Shown: positions 39,696 through 51,295 of the stretch, in pieces
How positions within the stretch are numbered: the stretch's first letter is position 1
Layout of the letters: each line of letters opens with the position of its first letter
Source: an uncultured Candidatus Rokubacteria bacterium
GTDB lineage: Bacteria; Methylomirabilota; Methylomirabilia; Rokubacteriales; DASRDR01
Assembly (NCBI GenBank): GCA_963799055.1
Contig: CAWCVP010000009.1
Coordinates: forward strand, 2,299 to 66,298
DNA length: 64,000 nucleotides
Reading direction: 5' to 3'
The notes under the pieces: model-generated
Databases searched by the model: none
Told to the model about the DNA's origin: nothing
Seen by the model: only the letters and a program-made list of their open reading frames with translations
Translations under genes and position numbers: made by a program

Positions 39696-40895
39696 ATGAT
39701 TTCGAGACTCGTCACGACGCCGCTCCTGATCCTGCTCCTTTCGGTGACCTCGGCCTTCGCCCAGGCGAAGGTGCCGGGCGTCACCGATACCGAGGTGGTC
39801 CTCGGCATCACGACGCCCCTGTCCGGGCCGGCGGCCGCGTGGGGCACCACGGGCATCGCGGCCGAGGCGTGGGCCAAGCACGTCAACGAGCAAGGCGGCG
39901 TCCACGGACGGAAGCTCCGGATCGTGATGAAGGACGACGGCTACGTCCCCGGGCGGGCGGTGGCCAACGTCACCGACATGAAGGACAGCGTGTTCGCGAT
40001 CGTGGGCCTTCTCGGCACCGCCGTGATGAACGCGAGCAAGGACATCGTCACCGAGGCCAAGATCCCCACGATCTATCCCTACGGCGACCCGCAGATCTGG
40101 GCGAAGCTTCCCAAGGACAGGCAACGCTACGTGTTCGCCATCTACACGAACTACGTGGACGAGGGCGAGTTCATCGTCCAGCAGGCGGCCAAGATCGCCA
40201 GCGCGAAGAAGATCGCGATCTTCTACCAGAACGACGACTTCGGTAAGGGGTACGTCGAAGGGGTCAAGCGCGCGATCCAGGCGCTCGGCGGCAAGGTTCA
40301 GCTGGCGGCCGAGGTCCCGCACGAGGTCCAGGACCGGGAGCTCGGAACGCATGCCCTCAAGCTTCGCGACTCGGGAGCTGACGTCGTCATCCCGGTCGGG
40401 ACGGTGACGGCGGGCGCGAACCTCCTGAAGGAGATGGCCAAGGTCGGCTACAAGCCGCAGATCTTCGCCCCGTTCCCGTACGGCGATCACCAGGTCATGT
40501 TCCGCCTGCTGGGCGAGCTGTGGGAGGGCGTCCACTACAACGGGAACATCCCCTCGCCGACCGATCCCGAGTCGGCGAAGATCATCCAGGCGATGATCAA
40601 GCAGGACGAGAAGCTCAAGGGGCGGGAGAGCTTCGCCCTCGCCGGCGGGATCGCCATGGCGACGGCGGTGGAGGGGCTCAAGCGCGCCGGGCGCAACCTG
40701 ACCCGCGAGGGATACGTCGAGGCCATGGAGGGCATCCGGAACTGGGTGCCCGAGGGGCTCAAGTGGGCGCCGATCACGTTCGGGCCGGGGCGTCACCACG
40801 GCCTCAACACCGTTCGGCTCTACCGGGCGAACAAGGCGGCTGACCAGTCGTTCGTGCCGATCACGGAGTTCCAGACCTTCCCGCCTCTGTTCTAG
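39696..40895 (+). CDS. branched-chain amino acid-type (PBP1) ABC substrate-binding protein
   Basis: In-frame ATG after GAGGAGGG in track ORF 39138..40895. Signal MISRLVTTPLLILLLSVTSAFAQA; VVLGITTPLSGPAAAWG; FYQNDDFGKG. Confidence 0.85.
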   Translation: MISRLVTTPLLILLLSVTSAFAQAKVPGVTDTEVVLGITTPLSGPAAAWGTTGIAAEAWAKHVNEQGGVHGRKLRIVMKDDGYVPGRAVANVTDMKDSVFAIVGLLGTAVMNASKDIVTEAKIPTIYPYGDPQIWAKLPKDRQRYVFAIYTNYVDEGEFIVQQAAKIASAKKIAIFYQNDDFGKGYVEGVKRAIQALGGKVQLAAEVPHEVQDRELGTHALKLRDSGADVVIPVGTVTAGANLLKEMAKVGYKPQIFAPFPYGDHQVMFRLLGELWEGVHYNGNIPSPTDPESAKIIQAMIKQDEKLKGRESFALAGGIAMATAVEGLKRAGRNLTREGYVEAMEGIRNWVPEGLKWAPITFGPGRHHGLNTVRLYRANKAADQSFVPITEFQTFPPLF

Positions 40896-40909
40896 GACGC
40901 TCGCACCTG

Positions 40910-40935
40910 CCCGGAGGGGGTCGATCCCCTCCGGG
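40910..40935 (+). terminator. 10-bp GC stem-loop between the binding-protein gene and the ATPase genes (attenuator-like, no T tract)
   Basis: CCCGGAGGGG (40910..40919), 6-nt loop, CCCCTCCGGG (40926..40935). Confidence 0.35.
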
Positions 40936-40944
40936 CCGCGCCCA

Positions 40945-41697
40945 ATGGGAACGCTCCTGGAGGTGCGAGGGCTGTCGCTGAGCTTCGGGGGCATCCGGGC
41001 GCTCGCGGGGGTGGACGTGTCCCTGGCGGCGGGGGAGACCCTGGCCATCATCGGACCCAACGGGTCCGGCAAGACCTCGCTGTTCAACTGCATCACGGGC
41101 GTCTACCGGCCCGACGCCGGCACCATCACCTTCGCCGGGGAGACCCTGCTCGGCCGCACCCCGGACGGCGTGACGCGACGGGGTGTGGCGCGCACCTTCC
41201 AGAACCTGCGGCTCTTCCACAACATGTCGGTGCTGGACAACCTCCTCCTGGGCCGGCATCTCCACTTCCGGCGGCGGCTTTCGGCGGCGATCCTGCGCCG
41301 TCGCGGCGAGGAGATTCGCCATCGAAGAAAGTGCGAGGAGCTGATCGACTTCCTGAACCTCCAGCCCTACCGGAAGAGCCGTGTGGCGGACTGCCCCTAC
41401 GGCGTCCAGAAGCGCGTGGAGCTCGCCCGGGCCCTCGCCACCGAGCCCCGGCTCCTCCTGCTCGACGAGCCGGTGGCCGGGCTCACCGCCGAGGAGAAGG
41501 AGGAGTTCGCCTACTGGGTGCACGAGCTGAGCGGACGGCTCGGCATCACCGTGCTCCTGGTCGAGCACGATCTCCGGGTGGCGTCGCGGCTGGCCGGGCG
41601 CATGGTGGCGCTCGATCACGGGGTGAAGATCGCCGAGGGCACGCCCGCCGAGGTGCAGCGGGCGCCCGAGGTGATCCGAGCGTACCTTGGCGACTGA
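40945..41697 (+). CDS. livG: ABC transporter ATP-binding protein (LivG-type)
   Basis: Track ORF 250 aa: GPNGSGKTSLFNCITG (Walker A), ARTFQN, LLLDEPVAGL. Confidence 0.9.
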   Translation: MGTLLEVRGLSLSFGGIRALAGVDVSLAAGETLAIIGPNGSGKTSLFNCITGVYRPDAGTITFAGETLLGRTPDGVTRRGVARTFQNLRLFHNMSVLDNLLLGRHLHFRRRLSAAILRRRGEEIRHRRKCEELIDFLNLQPYRKSRVADCPYGVQKRVELARALATEPRLLLLDEPVAGLTAEEKEEFAYWVHELSGRLGITVLLVEHDLRVASRLAGRMVALDHGVKIAEGTPAEVQRAPEVIRAYLGD

Positions 41698-42487
41698 CCG
41701 CCCGGGCTCCCCGCCTCTGCTGTCCGTCTCGAGCATCGAGACGCTCTATTTCGATCGCATCCATGCGCTGCTGGGCGTGTCGCTCGAGGTCGGGGCCGGC
41801 GACGTCTTCGCCGTGCTCGGGCCGAACGGGGCGGGGAAGACCACGCTGCTCCGGACGATCGCGGGCCTTCTGAAGGACCAGCCGAAGAAGGGCGAGATCC
41901 GGTTCGCCGGGCAGCTCATCGAGCGGCGCCCTCCGGAGCGCATCGCGAACCTCGGGGTCGTCTACGTCCCCGAGGACCGCGGGCTGTTTCGCGAGCTGAC
42001 GGTGGAGGAGAACCTGCGGCTCGGGCTGTGGGGCCGGCGAGACGGGAACATTGCCGCCGATCTCGACTTCGTCTACGGCATGTTCCCGATCCTGCGCGAG
42101 CGAACGCGCCAGGACGCGGAGACGCTGTCGGGCGGCGAGCAGCAGATGCTGGCGCTGGCCCGGGCCATGCTGCGCCGGCCGCGGCTTCTCATGCTGGACG
42201 AGCCGTCCCTCGGGCTCGCCCCGCAGGTCGCCAAGACCGTGTTCGAGGCGCTCACCGTGATCAGCGGACGGGGCACGACGATCCTCCTGGTGGAGCAGAA
42301 TGCCCGGCTGGCCCTCCGGATCGCCCGCCACGCGGCGATCCTGGAGTCGGGTCGCATCGTGCTCCAGGGACCGGCGGCGGAGCTTGCGGAGAACCCGGAC
42401 GTGCGCGAGGTGTACCTGGGGGTGGGCGGTACCGACGCCGCCTCGCCCAAGGGCTGGCGGCTCTACCGCAAGCGGAGGCGATGGTGA
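41687..42487 (+). CDS. livF: ABC transporter ATP-binding protein (LivF-type)
   Basis: Track ORF 266 aa: GPNGAGKTTLLRTIAG, LSGGEQQMLALARA, LMLDEPSLGLAP. Start codon uncertain (TTG 41687). Confidence 0.9.
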   Translation: MATDRPGSPPLLSVSSIETLYFDRIHALLGVSLEVGAGDVFAVLGPNGAGKTTLLRTIAGLLKDQPKKGEIRFAGQLIERRPPERIANLGVVYVPEDRGLFRELTVEENLRLGLWGRRDGNIAADLDFVYGMFPILRERTRQDAETLSGGEQQMLALARAMLRRPRLLMLDEPSLGLAPQVAKTVFEALTVISGRGTTILLVEQNARLALRIARHAAILESGRIVLQGPAAELAENPDVREVYLGVGGTDAASPKGWRLYRKRRRW

Positions 42488-44296
42488 TGGAGACGATCAC
42501 GCCGGTGGCGGGCACCTTCCCCGAGCTGTTCTTCTCGCAGGTGCGGAGGCAGGGGCCCGCCCTCGCGCTCCGGCACAAGGTCTTCGGCATCTGGCAGCGC
42601 GTCTCGTGGGCCGAGTACGGGGAGGCGGTCGAGCGTGTGGCCGGCGGCCTCCTGGCCGCGGGACTCGCCCCCGGGGAGCGGGTGGCCATCCTGGGCGACA
42701 ACCGTCCCGAGTGGCTCTATTGCCACCTGGGGACCATGGCGGCCGGCGGTGCCACGTGCGGGATCTACGCGACATCGTCACCGGAGCAGATCCGGTACCT
42801 CCTCCAGCACTCGGAGGCCCGGTGCCTCTTCGTGGAGAACGAGGAGCAGCTCGAGAAGGTGCTCACCGTGGTCGGCGAGACGGCAATCACGCGGGTCGTC
42901 GTCTGGGACGCGAAGGGGCTCTGGGGGTTCGCCGACGAGCGCGTGACCTTCTTCGAGGACTTCCTGAAGCAGGGACAGGCCTTCCTGGAGGCGAACCCCG
43001 GGCGGCTCGACCGGGCGCGGGGCGGCGATCGGGCCGGACGACCTCGCGATGATCATCTACACGTCGGGCACGACGGGCCCGCCCAAGGGGGCGATGCTCT
43101 CGCACCGGAACATCCTGTGGGAGATCGAGTCGCTCTCGCAGGCGGTGCCGCTCGAGCCCGGCGACGAGGTCGTCTCGTACCTGCCGTTCGCCCACATCTT
43201 CGAGAACTTCACCTCGGTGTTCTGGCCGGTCCGCCTCGGGATCGTCGTGAGCTTCGCCGAGAGCGTGGACACGCTCTTCCAGAACCTGCGCGAGGTCTCG
43301 CCGACGTACTTCGCGGGGCCCCCGCGGATCTGGGAGAAGCTGGCCTCGACCCTCGACCTGCGCATGGCCGACTCGACGCCGCTCAAGCGCGGGCTGTATC
43401 GCTTCGCCGTGGCGGTGGGCCGCCGTCACGCCCGCGCGCGCCGGGCGGGGCACGTCGGCGTCGGCCTCGGCCTGGCCTACCGGCTGGCCCACGCCGCCGT
43501 GCTCTACCCCTTGAAGCGTCGGCTGGGCCTCGAGCGGACCCGGATCGCGGTGTCGGCGGCGGCGCCGGCGGCGCCGGAGCTGTTCGAGTTCTATCACGCG
43601 CTCGGCGTGCCGCTCTTCGAGGTCTACGGCCAGACCGAATCCACCGGTGTCATCACGGCCGGCCGACCCGGCCGGGACCGGGTCGGCACCGTGGGCGAGC
43701 CGATCCCCGGCATCGAGGTGAGGCTCGGGGAGGACGGCGAGATCCTGACGCGCGGGCCGCACGTGTTCCGGGGATACTTCCGGGACCCCGAGCTCACGGC
43801 GCAGACGATCGATGCCGAGGGCTGGCTCCACACCGGCGACGTGGGGGCCTGGGAGGGCGGGCACCTCCGGATCCTGGACCGGAAGAAGGACATCATCATC
43901 ACGGCCGGCGGGAAGAACATCACCCCGGCCTACATCGAGAACAAGCTCAAGTTCAGCCCCTACGTCCAGGACGCGGTCGTGATCGGCGACCGGCGCAAGT
44001 ACGTCGTGGCGTTGATCCTGATCGACGAGGACGTCGTGACCCAGTTTGCCCAGGAGCACCGGATCCCCTTCGCGACGTTCGCGGACCTGACCCAGCACCC
44101 CGAGGTCCACCGCCTGATCAAGGAGGAGGTGGACAAGGTCAACCGCACCCTGTCCCAGGTCGAGTCGATCAAGCGGTTCGCGCTCCTGCCGCGGCGCTTC
44201 TACGAGGAGGAGGGGGACGTGACGCCGACGAAGAAGGTGAAGCGCCGGAGCGTCGAGCGCCGCTACGGCGACCTCATCGAGTCCCTCTACCGCTGA
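42487..44296 (+). CDS. AMP-dependent synthetase/long-chain acyl-CoA ligase, with a +1 frame break near 43020
   Basis: METITPVAGTFPELFFSQVRRQGPALALRHK... (track ORF 42028..44313 frame) joins IIYTSGTTGPPKGAMLSH...YGQTES...TGDVG...GGKNI (track ORF 43049..44296) across a GGGG run. GGAGG SD before ATG 42487. Confidence 0.85.
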
Positions 44297-44298
44297 CC

Positions 44299-44373
44299 GG
44301 GGTCAGACTTTGACTTCCCGACAGTTCGTGCCGCGCCGCTCCCCGAAGTGTAGGGAAGTGAAAGTCTGACCCC
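44299..44373. repeat. palindromic intergenic repeat element, copy 1 (75 bp)
   Basis: Arms GGGGTCAGACTTTGACTTCCCGACAGTTCG and CGAAGTGTAGGGAAGTGAAAGTCTGACCCC are complementary at 27 of 30 positions. Fills the whole gap between the ligase stop (44296) and the livM ATG (44374). Confidence 0.8.
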
Positions 44374-45354
44374 ATGGACCTCGTCGAGAGCTACGCCGAC
44401 GATCTCCGGTTCGCGCGGAAGCCGATCTCGCGGGTGCTCCTGGCCGGGCTGGTCGGCGCCCTGGTGGCGCTGCCGGCGTATGCCGACGCGGCGTGGCTGG
44501 TGCGGGCGAGCCTCATCTGGCTCACCGCGGTCGGCGTCATCGGCCAGAACCTCCTGATCGGCTACACCGGGCTCATCTCGTTCGGCCAGGCGGGGTTCCT
44601 CGCCATCGGCGCGTACACCTTCGGCCATCTGCGCATCGCCGGGGTCCCGCTCCCGCTGGCCCTCCTGGGCGGCGGGGCGGCGGCCGCGCTCGCCGGGGCG
44701 GCGGTGGGGTTCCCGTCGCTCCGGCTGAAGGGCCCGTACCTGGCGATCGCCACCCTCGGGTTCGGGGTCGCCACGTACCAGGTGGTCGCCAACGTGGAGT
44801 GGATCTCGGGGGGCCGCAACGGGCTCGCGGTGCCGCGCCTGGCGGGGCCCGCGGGGATCTCCCGCGAGATGTTCGTCTACTACGTGTACCTCGCCGTCCT
44901 GCTCGTCTTCACCGCGATCGCGTACAACCTGGTCTCCTCGTACGTCGGCCGCGCGTGGGTGGCGATCCGGGACAGTGACGTCGCGGCCGAGGCCATGGGC
45001 GTGAACCTCACGCGGTACAAGCTCCTCGCCTTCGCCGTCTCCTCCTTCTACACGGGAGTCCAGGGGGCGCTCTACGCGCTGTTCCTCGGCCATCTCGAGC
45101 CCCAGACCTTCAATCTCTCGGAGTCGATCACGCTGTTCGTGGCGGTGATCGTCGGCGGCCTCGCCTCGATCGAGGGATCGATCCTGGGCGCGGCGTTCGT
45201 CATCCTGGTGCCGGCGCTCCTCAGCGAGACCCGCTGGCTGGTCCCGATCCTCTTCGGCGTCGGGATCATCGTGGTGCTCGTCTTCGAGCCGCTCGGGCTG
45301 GCCGGGCGGTGGCTCAAGACGCGCCTGTACTTCCAGCTGTGGCCCTTCCGGTGA
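44374..45354 (+). CDS. livM: branched-chain amino acid ABC permease (LivM-type)
   Basis: Track ORF 326 aa, multi-TM: NLLIGYTGLISFGQAGFLAIGAY. Confidence 0.9.
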   Translation: MDLVESYADDLRFARKPISRVLLAGLVGALVALPAYADAAWLVRASLIWLTAVGVIGQNLLIGYTGLISFGQAGFLAIGAYTFGHLRIAGVPLPLALLGGGAAAALAGAAVGFPSLRLKGPYLAIATLGFGVATYQVVANVEWISGGRNGLAVPRLAGPAGISREMFVYYVYLAVLLVFTAIAYNLVSSYVGRAWVAIRDSDVAAEAMGVNLTRYKLLAFAVSSFYTGVQGALYALFLGHLEPQTFNLSESITLFVAVIVGGLASIEGSILGAAFVILVPALLSETRWLVPILFGVGIIVVLVFEPLGLAGRWLKTRLYFQLWPFR

Positions 45355-45370
45355 GCGAGCGCCCGGCCCC

Positions 45371-46252
45371 ATGACGCGGTTCCTCCAGTACGCCTTGACC
45401 GGCCTCTCGGCGGGCAGCCTCTACGCCCTGGTGGCGCTGGGGATCGTGCTCATCTACCGGTCGACCCGCGTCCTCAACTTCGCGCACGGCGCGGTCGCGA
45501 CCTTCGGGACCTTCGTGGCCTTCGGGCTCCTGACCTCGGGCGCGCCGTTCGCGGTCGCGTTCCCGCTGGCGCTCCTGGCGGGAGCGCTGATCGCCGTCGT
45601 CTTCTACTTCATCGTGCTCGTGCCGGCGCAGCGCCAGGGCGCGACCCTCCTGAGCCAGGTGATCCTGACGCTCGGGCTGGCGCTGATCTTCGAGGGCGTG
45701 ATCGTCTACCGGTGGGGCGCGGAGCCCGACCGCTTGCCGTTCCCCCTGTCGGACACGCGGACGTGGCGTCTGGGCTCCCTGTTCGTGAGCGAGCTGAGCG
45801 TGGGGACGCTCGCGGTGAGCCTGGTGGCCAGCGGGCTGCTCTACGTCCTGGTCCAGCGGACGCGGCTCGGCCTGGCGATGCGGGCGGCGTCGGAGAACCT
45901 GCAGGCCGCCCAGACCCTCGGGATTCCGACCCGGCGCGTCCTCGGCCTGTCGTGGGCGGTGGCGTCGGCGCTCGGCGTTCTCGCCGGGATCTTCCTGGCG
46001 CCGGCGCTGCTCCTGGACCCGTTCTTCATGCTCGACCCCTTCCTCAAGGGGTTCGCGGCGGCCGTCCTCGGAGGGCTGAACAGCCTGCCGGGCGCGGTGC
46101 TGGGCGGCGTGATCCTGGGACTCGCCGAGAGCCTGGCCGGCGCCTACCTGACGATCCAGTTCAAGAACACCCTGGCCTTCCTGGTGATCATCGTCGTGCT
46201 GCTGGTCCGGCCGGATGGGCTGCTGGGCCGCCCCTTCAAGGAGCGCGTGTGA
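45371..46252 (+). CDS. livH: branched-chain amino acid ABC permease (LivH-type)
   Basis: Track ORF 293 aa: MTRFLQYALTGLSAGSLYALVALGIVLIYRSTRVLNFAHG. Confidence 0.9.
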   Translation: MTRFLQYALTGLSAGSLYALVALGIVLIYRSTRVLNFAHGAVATFGTFVAFGLLTSGAPFAVAFPLALLAGALIAVVFYFIVLVPAQRQGATLLSQVILTLGLALIFEGVIVYRWGAEPDRLPFPLSDTRTWRLGSLFVSELSVGTLAVSLVASGLLYVLVQRTRLGLAMRAASENLQAAQTLGIPTRRVLGLSWAVASALGVLAGIFLAPALLLDPFFMLDPFLKGFAAAVLGGLNSLPGAVLGGVILGLAESLAGAYLTIQFKNTLAFLVIIVVLLVRPDGLLGRPFKERV

Positions 46253-46278
46253 CAGCCGGGCCGGGCGCTCGGGCGCCG

Positions 46279-46308
46279 TTGCCCGCGGCGCCGGGGCCGG
46301 GATAGAAT
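46279..46308 (+). promoter_or_regulatory. promoter candidate placing the transcription start at or next to ATG 46316 (leaderless mRNA?)
   Basis: TTGCCC (46279..46284), 18-nt spacer, TAGAAT (46303..46308). Only 7 nt separate the -10 from the ATG, and there is no SD. Confidence 0.45.
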
Positions 46309-46315
46309 CCCTCGC

Positions 46316-47072
46316 ATGGAACGGCCGATCGCCTACGACAAGCTGGCGCGGGAGGACCGGTTCGTCCGGATGCGCGCCCGCCGGGTAGGGGAGCTGCAGA
46401 GCGGAGCAGGGCTTGCCGCTCATGCCCGACCTCTCGTCGACCGAGTCGATCCGGGAGCGCGTCCACGGGATCCTCGTGGGCGAGCTCCAGGCGATGGAAG
46501 GCGCCGGCCGCACGGTCTACGACTTCCCGGACGCGCCGTGGGAGTTCACGATGGACATGGCGCGCCAGACCTGGGACGAGTCGCGCCACGTCGAGGTCTT
46601 CAGCCGCCTGCTCGAGCATCTCGGCGGCTACATCGGGGAGTTCCCGGAGACGACGATCCTCTGGCGCTGCGCCTGCGCGGAGGACGCCGCCGCGCGGGTG
46701 GCGGGCGTGAACCGGGGGCTCGAGGGGCTGGCCTGCGACGTGTTCGTCCAGCTGGTCGAGATCGCCCGGCGCCTGCCGGACCCGACGATCGCCCAGGCGG
46801 TCGACTACGTGCTGGCCGACGAGATCACGCACGTGCGCATGGGCTCCTACTGGCTCAACAAGCTGACGGAGGGCGATCCGGAGCGACGCCAGCGCGCCGT
46901 CGAGTTCCAGGAGACCATCGACGATCGGTTCAATCTCGGCGGCATGCGCCGGGAGGGACCCGCCGACCAGGTGCCGATCGCGATCGCGACCGAGTACCGG
47001 AAGCTCGCGGGCTTCACCGACGAGGAGATCGCGCGGCTCGTCAAGAGCACGCAGCGCAGCCCGGTCTACTGA
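46316..47072 (+). CDS. DUF455 ferritin-like (putative di-iron) protein, with a +1 frame break near 46411
   Basis: MERPIAYDKLAREDRFVRMRARRVGELQSGAG (ATG 46316 frame) joins track ORF 46413..47072. Two ExxH motifs (DESRHVEVF, ADEITHVRMG). Confidence 0.7.
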
Positions 47073-47075
47073 GCC

Positions 47076-47681
47076 GTGACCGGAGGCGCATCCCCGCCCG
47101 CCGACTCGCCCAGCCGGGAGCTGGCCGGGCACCTTGGTGTCGAGGCCACCGCCCGTCAGGTGCGCCACTACCGCTACGCCGAGGAGCGGATGATGCGCGT
47201 GATGGCGGGGTGGATCGCGCTCACCCCCGAGATTCCCGCCAAGCTCCTGCTGGGCCGGCAGGTGTGGGACTGCGCGCAGCACGCGGATCTCTGGGGCAAG
47301 CGCCTGCCCGAGCTGCGTGCGCCCGGGCAGGTCTCCGAGCCCTCGGGGCCCGGGTTCGTCCGGTTCCTGGACGCGCTGGAGTCGCGCGAGGCCTGGGGCG
47401 AGACCATCGAGCGGCTGACCGGCGTCTACCGGGTCCTGAAGCCGCACCTGGTCTCCGCATACGACGCCCACCTCGGCCGGACCAACTCGGTGTACGAGCC
47501 GCCCACCCGGCGGATCCTGGAGCGCTGCCTCGGCGACGAGCGCCGCCACCTGGCCGAGGGCGCGGCCGTCCTCGAGTCCCTCGCCCGCACGCCGGCCGAG
47601 CGGGCGCGCCTCACGGCCTGGGAGCGCGAGCTGCGAGGGATGCTCGACGCCCACGGCGGGGTGACCGGGGGAGGGGGATGA
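47076..47681 (+). CDS. second ferritin-like four-helix-bundle protein (putative metal-binding)
   Basis: Track ORF 201 aa, GTG start 4 nt after the previous stop. YAEERMMRV, WDCAQHADLW, GDERRHLAEG (ExxH). Confidence 0.55.
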   Translation: MTGGASPPADSPSRELAGHLGVEATARQVRHYRYAEERMMRVMAGWIALTPEIPAKLLLGRQVWDCAQHADLWGKRLPELRAPGQVSEPSGPGFVRFLDALESREAWGETIERLTGVYRVLKPHLVSAYDAHLGRTNSVYEPPTRRILERCLGDERRHLAEGAAVLESLARTPAERARLTAWERELRGMLDAHGGVTGGGG

Positions 47682-48047
47682 GTCGCGGCCGCGCTGCCGG
47701 GAGCGACGAGCCCGAGCGGGCGGCTCGGGCTCATGCCGAGCGGATCGCCGGCCGAGACCGGAGCGCGCTTGGCGGATCTCGCGCCGGGCGCGGAGGTCAC
47801 CCCGCCGGACCTCCTCGAGTGGCTGATGGGATGCCGGTTCCGGGCCGCCGAGCTGGTGGCCCACGCCCGGATCGGGACCCATCACGTCCTCAAGACGAAG
47901 TTCGTCGGGGCGACCACCGTCGTGGTGCAGGCGCGATGGGTGGCGGACGACGCCGGCCGCTGGCTCATCCGTGAAGCGGAGATCGCCCGCGTGGAAGGCG
48001 CGCCGGCGGGGTCGCCCCGGCCCGTGTCCCGGCCCGGAGAGGTCTGA
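47678..48047 (+). CDS. small hypothetical protein (possibly NTF2/SnoaL-like); frame break near 47750, or an alternative start at 47733
   Basis: ATGA overlap with the previous gene: MSRGRAAGSDEPERAARAHAERIA, then one frame over AETGARLADLAPGAEVTPPDLLEWLMGCRF...WVADDAGRWLIREAEIARVEG (track ORF 47733..48047). Confidence 0.5.
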
Positions 48048-48067
48048 TCCTGTTCGACTCCCTCCTG

Positions 48068-49384
48068 GTGGCCAACCGGGGTGAGATCGCCCTCCGGATC
48101 ATCCGCACCTGTCGACGGCTCGGGATCGCGACGGTCGCGGTCTACTCGGAGGCCGACGCCGGCGCCCCTCACGCTCGGGCGGCCGACCGCGCGCTGGCCA
48201 TCGGACCGGCGCCCGCCCGCGAGAGCTACCTGTCGATCGACCGCCTGCTCGGGGCGGCCCGGGAGGCCCGCGTGGCCGCGATTCACCCGGGCTACGGGTT
48301 CCTGTCGGAGAACTGGCGCTTCGCGGAGGCCTGTCGCGAGGCGGGCGTCACGTTCGTGGGGCCGCCGCCCGAGGTGTTGCGGACCATGGGCGACAAGACG
48401 GAGGCGCGCCGAATCGTGGGCGGCGCCGGCGTTCCGGTCCTGCCGGGCTCCGACGGCCCCGTCGGGAGCGCGGGGGCGGCGCGGGAGGCCGCCGACGCGA
48501 TCGGCTATCCGGTCATGCTCAAGGCCGCCGCCGGGGGAGGCGGGATCGGGATGGCGCTCGTCCCCGATCCCGCGCGGATCGAGGCGGCCTTCGCCGCCGC
48601 GCAGCGGCGCGTCCAGTCCGCCTTCGGGGAGGCGGCGGTCTACGTGGAGCGGGCCATCGAGCGTCCGCGCCACATCGAAGTTCAGATCCTCGCCGACGGG
48701 CACGGACCCCCGATCCACCTCTTCGAGCGAGACTGCTCCATCCAGCGGCGGCATCAGAAGCTCGTGGAGGAGTCGCCGGCACCCCAGCTCGACCCCGGTC
48801 TTCGATCGCGGCTGCACGAGGCGGGCGTGCGGGCGGCGGCCGCCGCCGGATACCGGAACGCCGGCACCGTCGAGTTCCTGGTCGACGGTGATCGGTTCTA
48901 CTTCCTCGAGGTGAACGCGCGCCTCCAGGTGGAGCATCCGGTAACGGAGGAGATCGTCGGGTGCGACCTCGTCGAGGCGCAGCTCCGGATCGCCGCCGGG
49001 GACCCGCTCGGATGGACTCAGTCGGACGTCATGGCTCGCGGCGCCGCGATCGAGTGCCGGATCTATGCCGAGGACCCGGACCGGGGCTTCCTCCCGTCAC
49101 CCGGCACCGTCACCGTCGTCGACCTGCCCGAGGGGCCCGGACTTCGTCACGAATGTGGGGTCGAGCCGGGGAGCGTGATCGGCGTCCACTACGACCCGCT
49201 CCTGGCGAAGGTGATCGCCGCCGGGCGGGACCGGGCCGAGGCCATCGGGCGGCTGGCCGGGGCGCTCGAGCGCTACCGGATCGATGGGGTGAAGACCACG
49301 GTGCCGCTCCACCGGCGGATCCTGGCGAGCCCGGCGTTCCGGGCCGGGGCGGTGCACACGCGGTTCCTCGAGGGAGGGCTCTGA
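48068..49384 (+). CDS. accC: biotin carboxylase (AccC-type ATP-grasp)
   Basis: Track ORF 438 aa: ANRGEIALRIIRT, GYPVMLKAAAGGGGIGM, HIEVQILADGHG, ERDCSIQRRHQKLVEE, EVNARLQVEHPVTE. Homology (ILFDSLLV) extends upstream of the GTG to about 48047 without a canonical start. Confidence 0.9.
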   Translation: MANRGEIALRIIRTCRRLGIATVAVYSEADAGAPHARAADRALAIGPAPARESYLSIDRLLGAAREARVAAIHPGYGFLSENWRFAEACREAGVTFVGPPPEVLRTMGDKTEARRIVGGAGVPVLPGSDGPVGSAGAAREAADAIGYPVMLKAAAGGGGIGMALVPDPARIEAAFAAAQRRVQSAFGEAAVYVERAIERPRHIEVQILADGHGPPIHLFERDCSIQRRHQKLVEESPAPQLDPGLRSRLHEAGVRAAAAAGYRNAGTVEFLVDGDRFYFLEVNARLQVEHPVTEEIVGCDLVEAQLRIAAGDPLGWTQSDVMARGAAIECRIYAEDPDRGFLPSPGTVTVVDLPEGPGLRHECGVEPGSVIGVHYDPLLAKVIAAGRDRAEAIGRLAGALERYRIDGVKTTVPLHRRILASPAFRAGAVHTRFLEGGL

Positions 49385-49388
49385 GACC

Positions 49389-49604
49389 ATGGCCGAAGAG
49401 GTGCGCGCCCACATCACGGGCGTCGTGTTCCAGGTCGTCGCCGGCGTGGGGGAGAAGGTCGCGGCGGGCGACCCGATCCTGATCCTGGAGTCGATGAAGA
49501 TGGAGATCCCCGTCGAGGCGCCGCGCGCGGGGGTGGTGCGCGAGCTCCGGGTGGCCGAAGGGCAGACCGTCCAGGAAGGCGAGGTCGTCGCGACGCTGGA
49601 CTAG
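49389..49604 (+). CDS. minimal biotinyl-domain carrier protein (BCCP-like, 71 aa)
   Basis: Track ORF: ...GDPILILESMKMEIPVEAPRAGVV...; (A/S)MKM biotinylation motif. Confidence 0.85.
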   Translation: MAEEVRAHITGVVFQVVAGVGEKVAAGDPILILESMKMEIPVEAPRAGVVRELRVAEGQTVQEGEVVATLD

Positions 49605-49607
49605 GTC

Positions 49608-49700
49608 GGGTCAGGCTTCGCGCTTCCCGACATTTCACGCTGCCCGGCCGACCAGGGTCGGGCGCGGCCGAAATGTCGGGAAGTGACAAGTCTGGACCCC
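49608..49700. repeat. palindromic intergenic repeat element, copy 2 (93 bp)
   Basis: Left arm GGGTCAGGCTTCGCGCTTCCCGACATTTC and right arm GAAATGTCGGGAAGTGACAAGTCTGGACCCC. Inner 14 bp are perfectly complementary. The arms are homologous to copy 1. Fills the gap between the convergent BCCP and rpoD stops. Confidence 0.8.
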
Positions 49701-49702
49701 GA

Positions 49703-51295
49703 TCAGTTCTCGACGAAGCTCCGCAGTCCGCGGCCGCGGAGCGGCGAGCGCAGCTTACGGAGCGCCTTCGCCTCGATCTGTCGGATGCGCTCGCGCGTCA
49801 CGTCGAAGCGCTGCCCGACCTCCTCCAGCGTGTGCTCGCCTTCCTCGCCGATCCCGAACCGGAGCCGGAGGATCTGCGCCTCCTTCTCCGAGAGACCGGA
49901 GAGGGCGCGCTCCACCTGCGCGGTGAGGTCGTCGGACAGGAGCGACTCCACCGGCGAGGGCGTGCGCTTGTCCTCGAGGAAGTCCCCGAGGTCGGAGTCC
50001 TCCCCGATCGGCGTCTCGAGCGACAGCGGCTTCTTGCACGACTCCATGATCAGCCGGACCTTGCGGAGCGGCAGCTCGCACCGGTTCGCCAGCTCCTCCG
50101 GGGTCGGCTCCCGCCCGAGCTCCTGGAAGAGGCCCCGGTTCACCCGCGCCAGCCGGTTCAGCGTCTCGATCATGTGCACCGGGATGCGGATCGTCCGCGC
50201 GTGGTCGGCGATCGCCCGCGTGATCGCCTGGCGGATCCACCAGGTCGCGTAGGTCGAGAACTTGAAGCCGCGGCGGTACTTGAACCGGTCGACGGCCTTC
50301 ATGAGACCGATGTTGCCCTCCTGGATGAGGTCCAGGAGCGGCATGTCGTGGTTCAGGTAGCGCTTGGCGATGGAGACCACCAGACGGAGGTTCGCCTCCA
50401 TGAGGGCCTTCTTCGCCACGCGCACCTCGAACTCGCCCGCGTCCAGATCCCGCATGACCGCGACGGCACGCTTGGGAGGCAGCCCGAGCTCCGCCTCGAT
50501 CGCCCGACCGCGCTTCCGCAGCTCGGCCTTCGATCCCTTGTCGGTCAGGGTCTCGATCTGCTTCTGGAGGCCAGCCAGCTCCTGGGCCAGGGTGCGGAAA
50601 CGTCCCACCCAGCGGTCGACGACCATCGGCTTCAACGGAAGGTCGCCCAGGAGACGCACCCGATCCTGATGGTTCTGCGCCATCCAGTCCTGGATCGCCT
50701 TGATCGTGGAGTCCTTGCGCGCCCGATTCCGCGACGCCTGGAGCTCGCCGAGCTCGCGGTCCAGCCTCCGGATCTGAGCGAACACGCCCAGCACCCGCCG
50801 GAGCTCGGTCTCCGTGAGCTCGGTACCGTCGAGGGCCTCCAGGTACTGATCCGGCTCGGCCTCGTGCTTCCGCAGCCGCTCGGCCAGCTCCATGAGCAGC
50901 GTCCGGATCATCGGGACGGCCATGATGGCCCGGCGGACCCGCTCCTGGCCTCGCTCGATCTGCTGGCCGAGGCTGACTTCCTGCTCGGAGTTGAGGAGGT
51001 GGATCCGCCCGATCTCCCTCAGGTAGAGACGAACAGGGTCCTCGGGGGCCAGGCTCTCCTCGACGGGCTCGTCGTCTTCCTCGACCGCGCGCTCGAACTC
51101 GTCCGACGCTCCGGTCAGGCTGTCCTCGCCCTCGGCCGCCGCCGGCAGCTCTAGATTGCGAAGGACTTCCTCGACCTTGTCGGCCGGAACGAGCTCGCCA
51201 GGAGTCTGACCAAGGCCATCCTCGGTCTTGGCCTGTCGAGTTCTGGACACGGCCACCGAGGAGATCCGCTCATTCGGCGTAACACGCTGGAGCAT
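49703..51295 (-). CDS. rpoD: primary sigma-70 factor RpoD
   Basis: Track ORF 530 aa: [82 protein letters not shown]. Confidence 0.95.

Follow-up and report, generated by a model that had tools for sequence, protein, structure and literature searches.

The DNA analysed here is a stretch of 64,000 nt (henceforth referred to as the window) from contig CAWCVP010000009.1 of GCA_963799055.1, a Methylomirabilota/Rokubacteria-type metagenome-assembled genome of 4.06 Mb in 23 contigs, with an estimated completeness of 70.6% and a GC content of ~71%. Within it, an earlier note made from the letters alone had drawn attention to an operon that joins two ferritin-like proteins to a biotin carboxylase (BC) and a very short biotin carboxyl carrier protein (BCCP), and it is this operon that we describe. 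Five co-directional reading frames are present on the + strand, as that note had stated, and we refer to them as g1, g2, g3, BC and carrier (Table 1). The junctions between them are as tight as had been described and measure, in gene order, 3 nt, an ATGA overlap, 2 nt and 4 nt. The count of five holds for the window, but in 64 of 82 loci a single open reading frame (ORF) of ~320 aa takes the place of g2 and g3, which are split in the window clade only, so the operon appears to have consisted ancestrally of four genes.

Table 1. Features of the operon in the window, and gene order around the g1/g2 pair in the contexts sampled outside Rokubacteriales.
Feature	Position	Strand	Remarks
Predicted sigma-70-type promoter TTGCCC-18-TAGAAT	46279..46308	+	-10 box ends 7 nt before ATG 46316; no Shine-Dalgarno (SD) motif
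g1, putative DUF455 di-iron subunit	46316..47072	+	251 aa in relatives; open DUF455 frame here 46413-47072
g2, putative degenerate DUF455 paralog, ferritin-like bundle	47076..47681	+	201 aa
g3, NTF2-like domain protein	47678..48047	+	ATGA overlap on g2 stop; open frame 47733-48047 (104-aa ORF)
BC	48050..49384	+	444 aa; CTG start; three BC Pfam domains
Biotinyl carrier (BCCP)	49389..49604	+	71 aa; SMKM motif
Long palindromic hairpin	49604..49705	.	minimum free energy -73 kcal/mol, z -10.8; fills the gap between carrier and convergent rpoD
Binataceae	L101:7790-12324		TetR - g2 ortholog (E 3.6e-60) - two g3-like NTF2 - two DUF455 - DUF1329
Metagenome contig L105			FabH-like - acyl-CoA dehydrogenase (ACAD) - DUF455 - g2-like (E 4e-39)
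Metagenome contig L104			g2-like (E 4e-35) - DUF455 - polyamine genes
Polyangiaceae (P0241)			one 475-aa protein fusing g2-like (hhalign E 1e-11) and DUF455 domains

The first gene belongs to DUF455: its product matches PF04305 with an E-value of 5.7e-28 (98.6 bits against a cut-off of 34.3 bits) and contains both of the ExxH motifs that had been read in it, WDESRH and ADEITH. The ligand set E56, E88xxH91, E136 and E169xxH172 was invariant in 14 sequences. As assembled, however, g1 is not one ORF, and in this respect the earlier description did not hold: a +1 break near 46396-46400 leaves ATG 46316 and the DUF455 frame (from 46413) out of phase. In each of the 20 relatives that were aligned, one base is missing at this point and a single 251-aa protein is encoded, from one ORF that starts MERPIAYDKLAREDRF, and ATG 46316 opens the same conserved N-terminus. 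To our knowledge, DUF455 is a large ferritin-like family without an assigned function; a literature search on DUF455, PF04305 and COG2833 found no functional study, and the family comprises 1,437 cluster representatives at E <= 1e-3 (50% identity clusters of public genomes and metagenomes).

The product of g2 had been noted as a second helical protein with an ExxH motif, and this motif (DERRH) is present. Searches of g2 against Pfam and NCBIfam gave no family match, with PF04305 remaining sub-threshold at 16.5 bits, and profile searches of the PDB with g1 and g2 returned marginal matches only. Direct comparison of the two by hhalign aligned them with an E-value of 2.5e-5, placing RQVWDESRH of g1 against RQVWDCAQH of g2; in this alignment the E88 position of g2 is C, N or S and the E136 position is K, and the last ExxH, in helix D, is retained. 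Judged from these alignments, g2 is a remote and degenerate DUF455 paralog that has lost two of the ligands, and the most likely role of g2 (with g3) is to accompany the DUF455 subunit without being catalytic itself. Elsewhere in the windowed genome, downstream of peptide deformylase, lies a gene (L107, G000:C16:199500-202500, ~1240-1977) for another ferritin-like protein, which has two ExxH motifs (GDEAKH and PDERHH) and is 32% identical to g2 over 131 aa.

The small protein that had been left without a function is encoded as g3, but it is usually part of g2, is NTF2-like and is frame-broken in the window. In eight close relatives g3 is ~122 aa long and its start codon overlaps the stop codon of g2 (GTGA/ATGA), and alignment with these relatives places an extra base (a +1 break) near 47762-47770 of the window. 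The g3 ORF of the window had no match in the family libraries. An AF2 model of a fused g2-g3 ortholog (pLDDT 87, pTM 0.74) consists of a ferritin-like bundle and an NTF2-like domain; with Foldseek, the g3 part matched NTF2, ketosteroid isomerase (KSI) and SnoaL folds at a probability of 1.0, and the g2 bundle matched the ADO-like protein 5uxg with a TM-score of 0.62.

The fourth and fifth genes are of the types that the earlier note had assigned. BC, of the AccC type, has all three BC Pfam domains, matches BC structures in the PDB at about 1e-139 and keeps the catalytic motifs HQK, EVNARLQVEH and ECR intact. No ATG, GTG or TTG precedes the conserved BC N-terminus, (M)FDSLLVANRGEIA, in the window; the start is CTG 48050, located 7 nt after GGAGG and kept in 9 of 9 close relatives (L005-L013). 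The TGA stop of g3 directly precedes this CTG (48050-48052), which suggests translational coupling between g3 and BC. The glycine-rich ATP loop of BC reads GGGGIGM (~48533-48553, residues 162-168), a sequence found in 57 of 60 operon BCs, and the loops of the two BC paralogs of the windowed genome read GGGGRGM and GGGGKGM. The minimal carrier matches PF00364 (E 1.6e-18) and passes NCBIfam NF004547 (86.5 bits against 75), and its SMKM motif is present in 68 of 68 loci. This pair differs from a housekeeping AccB/AccC pair, as had been pointed out: the carrier has 71 aa and lies 3' of BC, compared with an accB product of ~150 aa encoded 5' of accC, and the canonical set is found elsewhere in the genome (efp-accB-x-accC on C8, accA on C15). 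The order accC-BCCP-carboxyltransferase with a short carrier is that of split three-subunit acyl-CoA carboxylases. Within the window clade, the ratio of nonsynonymous to synonymous substitution (dN/dS) was 0.05 for g1, 0.18 for g2, 0.21 for g3, 0.15 for BC and 0.13 for the carrier, which indicates purifying selection on all five genes.

A profile search with g2 yielded 80 loci from 80 species records, of which 75 were titled Rokubacteria, Methylomirabilota or 'uncultured bacterium' and five otherwise (Verrucomicrobiia, Dormiibacterota, Limnocylindria, Deferrimicrobiaceae and Acidoferrum). g1 adjoins g2 in all 80, and g2 occurs in 156 of the 251 genomes of the phylum, all of them within the order of the window, Rokubacteriales. 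Of the 57 loci that are bounded downstream, 56 have the carrier and 41 a DinB-family gene; BC is full in 45, truncated in six and absent in six, and at least 24 loci encode a full carboxyltransferase (CT; 516 aa, PccB-type) two genes after the carrier. From these contents, the commoner form of the operon is g1-g2g3-BC-BCCP-DinB-CT facing rpoD. The association of DUF455 with an accC-like gene is thus conserved across Rokubacteriales, and the refutation that the earlier note had named, namely ordinary acetyl-CoA carboxylase subunits adjacent by chance, does not apply. The rpoD/cinA synteny downstream is also conserved. In several species genes for an acyl-CoA ligase, a short-chain dehydrogenase/reductase (SDR) and an ACAD are inserted between BC and carrier. 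At six loci (L003:10990-11661, L023, L031, L036, L053 and L066) BC is absent or reduced to its C-terminal half, and the 71-aa carrier is intact directly after g2g3 or g3. One genome (G016) has two contigs (L087 and L097) that each carry the operator described below and the start of a g1 gene, and represents either a second copy of the operon or two strains in one bin.

The earlier note had emphasized that no CT lies nearby, and none is encoded in the window; the nearest is found ~25 kb downstream, outside the window. It is this gene that the proposed search for an orphan CT brings up, and it is the sole PccB-like CT in the windowed assembly, 46% identical to the CT in the operons of relatives. 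The operon CT itself (L024:11062-12612) matches PF01039 end to end (E 1e-175) and is of the PccB/12S/MmdA type (1vrg, E 2.5e-159, compared with 1e-91 for MccB). In the window and in L005-L013 the DinB-family gene and the CT are both missing from the operon. An ortholog of the operon CT was found neither in six window-clade genomes (5.3-9.1 Mb) nor in the windowed assembly, and the best CT matches in these six genomes were 46-49% identical, compared with 76-78% in genomes that keep the CT. Relocation of the CT to another place in the windowed genome or its clade was considered and rejected, as no ortholog was found. Comparison of the loci indicates that the absence of the CT is a lineage-specific loss and not the design of a CT-less biotin enzyme, and the earlier suggestion of such a design is not borne out, given the full PccB-type CT of other bounded loci. 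Near sucCD, the windowed genome also encodes an alpha subunit in which BC and BCCP are fused, and a clade relative has a second PccB next to methylmalonyl-CoA mutase; neither that PccB nor the orphan CT lies near a BC. Since acyl-CoA carboxylase genes are dispersed in the window clade, pairing in trans is an economical explanation for a BC and BCCP without a CT, and the most likely partner of BC and carrier, acting in trans, is one or the other of the two unlinked PccB-like CTs that remain.

Outside Rokubacteriales, four contexts were sampled in which the g1/g2 pair has neither BC nor BCCP within 8-10 kb of it (a shorter distance at contig ends; Table 1). In the Binataceae locus, one of the two full DUF455 copies is 61% identical to g1, and the DUF1329 protein is a LolA-like lipoprotein. 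The fused protein of Polyangiaceae lies in what looks like a small-molecule biosynthetic cluster (L103:4793-17138), which encodes a homocitrate-synthase-like protein, a HemN-like radical SAM protein, large and small subunits of aconitase, aminotransferases, an AMP-ligase and a methyltransferase. In Bacteroidota, a DUF455 protein (443 aa) resembles this fusion in its two-part layout and stands among housekeeping neighbours with a canonical accB fragment ~7.5 kb away. Recurrence of the pair without biotin proteins implies that the g1/g2 unit is autonomous and that it is tied to BC and BCCP in Rokubacteriales only. The coupling of a carboxybiotin-generating module with the putative di-iron proteins, to which the earlier note had drawn attention, is therefore not obligatory.

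The promoter that had been proposed, TTGCCC-18-TAGAAT just before the first ATG, is present and is the sole promoter-like match in 45800-49800 (4 kb), with 0.1 expected by chance. Its TAGAAT box is kept at the same spacing across the window clade while the flanking sequence diverges. In 26 of 76 loci, four of them with an SD-like motif, a box of the TAGAAT/TATAAT type lies 5-10 nt ahead of the start codon and no operator is present; the window belongs to this type. Taking a -10 box 5-10 nt from the start codon and the lack of an SD as the mark of leaderless transcription, we predict from the 7-nt distance to ATG 46316 and the missing SD that the operon transcript is leaderless, a prediction that the earlier note had made and that now has comparative support. 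At the other end of the operon, the long hairpin is probably a bidirectional terminator for carrier and rpoD. Directly upstream of the operon in the window lies a livK-livG-livF-acyl-CoA ligase-livM-livH cluster (39708-46252), and in 16 of 69 loci the same livKGF-ligase-livMH cluster stands directly 5' of the operon, as a recurrent uptake and activation neighbour.

A different arrangement is found in 47 of the 76 loci, where TTGCCT-N17-TAGACT is followed by the palindrome TGAAC-N4-GTTCA, and 44 of these 47 have an SD. We searched five genomes for other exact copies of TGAAC-N4-GTTCA: three precede a TetR gene close to Bacillus subtilis FadR/YsiA (PDB 1vi0/3whb, E 4e-41), three are found in a divergon of ACAD and M20 amidohydrolase genes, and one lies beside a DNA-ligase-like ORF. 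A stricter form of the operator pattern, CTGAAYNNNNGTTCAG, gave no match. A LexA/SOS box was considered on account of the resemblance of GAAC-N4-GTTC to the Gram-positive LexA box and of the DinB gene in the operon, and was rejected because no site precedes lexA or recA and most of the other sites precede the FadR/YsiA-like TetR gene or lie in the ACAD divergon. In the window, TGAAC-N4-GTTCA is absent upstream of g1 and from the whole windowed assembly, and a FadR-like gene was not found in the windowed genome or in eight relatives of the TAGAAT type. As the operator is missing from the window clade and no FadR-like gene could be found there, the regulatory argument comes from the relatives only; in them, these sites fit best with joint control of both modules within acyl-CoA catabolism across most of the order.

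Overall, we consider it reasonably probable that this is one operon of two modules, in which a DUF455-type heteromeric di-iron oxidase is encoded together with two subunits, BC and carrier, of a split PccB-type acyl-CoA carboxylase. In such an enzyme g1 would be the catalytic subunit, with the full E/ExxH/E/ExxH set, and g2 its ligand-poor partner, with which g1 is expected to form a heterodimer; the NTF2-like domain of g3, normally fused to g2, might provide a pocket for a ligand. If PaaA/PaaC and other di-iron oxygenases of two subunits are taken as a guide, the enzyme would use O2 to oxidise a hydrophobic substrate, either acyl or acyl-CoA, by hydroxylation or desaturation, and the two modules may serve one catabolic pathway. 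The oxygenase chemistry is thus proposed on the strength of that analogy only. Ancestrally, BC and carrier would have served the PccB-type CT encoded two genes downstream; the window clade would then have lost the CT and the DinB-family gene, and its BC and carrier would now pair in trans with an unlinked CT. An acyl-CoA context is seen in the shared operator, in the ligase/SDR/ACAD insert, in the ACAD beside the pair in L105 and in the liv-ligase cluster. Several observations weigh against this interpretation. No reductase or ferredoxin gene is found among the operon genes of the window, L003, L024 and L064, and no substrate can be read from the sequence. The similarity of the di-iron module to characterised di-iron enzymes in PDB and Pfam is marginal, and the structure model of g1 is poor (pLDDT 54). 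In the windowed assembly g1 and g3 are broken, and its clade is without the FadR-type operator and a detectable FadR-like gene. Lastly, the carrier is kept beside g2g3 in loci that have neither BC nor CT (L023, L036, L053 and L066), a pattern not to be expected of two purely independent modules.

Comparison with known systems places each module. The BC and carrier resemble a split three-subunit acyl-CoA carboxylase in their gene order (in relatives BC, short carrier, then CT), their intact BC motifs and their MKM carrier, and the closest solved CTs include those of T. maritima (1VRG) and S. tokodaii (1X0U) and the P. shermanii 12S subunit (1ON3). They differ from it in that no cognate CT was found in the windowed assembly or six clade relatives, in the DinB-family gene that lies between carrier and CT in relatives, in the GGGGIGM loop and in the presence of a putative di-iron enzyme in the operon. 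The di-iron module resembles PaaA/PaaC of phenylacetyl-CoA 1,2-epoxidase, and other di-iron oxygenases in which a catalytic subunit is joined by a ligand-poor one, as a pair of paralogous ferritin-like proteins, one with a full and one with a degenerate ligand set, in an acyl-CoA context, and g1 and g2 do stand side by side as a putatively catalytic and a degenerate paralog. In some JGI records g2 is called '1,2-phenylacetyl-CoA epoxidase catalytic subunit'. Unlike PaaA/PaaC, the module has no PaaB, PaaD or PaaE-like reductase, its subunits are much smaller and its degenerate subunit bears an NTF2-like domain, and the match to PaaA_PaaC (E 0.07, 12.7 bits) falls below the 28.5-bit cut-off. Within DUF455 (PF04305), g1 is a clear member and g2 appears to be a remote degenerate relative, so that this subfamily takes the form of a g1/g2 pair or a g2-g1 fusion. 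R2-like ligand-binding oxidases and ADO-like proteins are likewise small ferritin-like di-metal proteins that act on or bind fatty acyl chains; the weak best matches (NF006200, E 2.5e-4; PDB 7qbk, E 0.09) are marginal and give no evidence of membership. Finally, the operons of the 47 relatives share their palindrome with FadR-like and ACAD genes, as in a B. subtilis FadR (YsiA) regulon, and the window clade departs from this pattern with its predicted leaderless TAGAAT promoter.

Of the competing explanations, the one that fares best, although we regard it as unlikely, is that the two modules are functionally unrelated and are co-transcribed through an inherited gene order, with BC and carrier being spare subunits for scattered CTs. 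The g1/g2 pair is found elsewhere near polyamine genes, in the natural-product-like cluster and among housekeeping genes; BC, DinB and CT are gained and lost in a mosaic fashion; and the conserved rpoD/cinA synteny could mean that local gene order is simply stable. Against this, the genes follow one another closely or overlap, the whole string is served by one promoter or operator across the order, and both modules are repeatedly accompanied by an acyl-CoA-type repressor site and by genes for an ACAD and a ligase.

We find it quite improbable that BC and carrier serve the di-iron enzyme directly, as a new CT-less biotin-dependent system in which g1, g2 and g3 might hold a substrate to which carboxybiotin is brought, or the di-iron enzyme might act on a carrier-bound cofactor. 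Such a system would account for the fact that g1-g2g3 have no more constant neighbour than the carrier (present in 56 of 57 loci), for its invariant SMKM motif, for its persistence where BC and CT are lost (L023, L036, L053 and L066) and for the lineage-specific GGGGIGM loop of the operon BC. It would also agree with the substitution rates, according to which BC and carrier are under purifying selection in the CT-less clade. However, no biotin protein lies within 8-10 kb of g1, g2 and g3 in Binataceae or of g1 and g2 in two other contexts, the fused myxobacterial form is likewise without one, the commoner form of the operon has a canonical PccB-type CT, and unlinked CTs are available in trans. 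With the lack of a CT read as a lineage-specific loss, a CT-less biotin enzyme is removed as a false lead.

It is also possible to read the frame breaks as genuine, such that the cluster is decaying in the windowed genome and the di-iron module is dead there. The acyl-CoA ligase gene of the neighbouring liv cluster is split across two frames at 43040-43089, a point at which its ortholog in L007 is unbroken, and this is a third break within 6.5 kb. These three breaks, together with a low estimated completeness in few contigs, suggest that the assembly is indel-prone, and the extra bases in g1 and g3 are probably assembly errors. Decay is the least probable of the explanations to which we still give any weight: g1 and g3 do have +1 breaks relative to all relatives, and truncation or loss of BC in other species shows that the operon does decay, but the further break in the adjoining ligase gene and 70.6% completeness in just 23 contigs fit an indel-prone long-read assembly, and beyond the breaks g1 is 96-97% identical to its relatives, without stops and with a dN/dS of 0.05. 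An Atu/Liu-like pathway, as the ligase/SDR/ACAD insert and the TetR gene might suggest, was rejected as a general reading because the CT is of the PccB type (1e-159, compared with 1e-91 and 1e-78 for the MccB and GCC types) and the insert is present in a subset of species only.

Under the favoured interpretation of a di-iron oxidase module beside a split acyl-CoA carboxylase module, the operon offers three clues to the biology of DUF455: that the active unit may consist of a catalytic subunit and a degenerate paralog, often with an NTF2-like pocket; that in Rokubacteriales the DUF455 pair is apparently co-transcribed with an acyl-CoA carboxylase module; and that any regulator that can be read is a predicted FadR-type, acyl-CoA-responsive repressor. 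Taken together, these clues point to the oxidation of fatty acyl groups or acyl-CoA as the place to look for the function of DUF455. A bolder proposal, which we put forward tentatively and hold to be rather unlikely, is that the heteromer of DUF455 and its partner represents a new family of O2-dependent di-iron enzymes for fatty-acyl or acyl-CoA substrates. In Rokubacteriales it would share a pathway with the small carrier and BC, or associate with them physically, and the operon would then encode an undescribed route of oxidation plus carboxylation. If this were true, it would open the first way into the function of DUF455, which has more than 1,400 cluster representatives.

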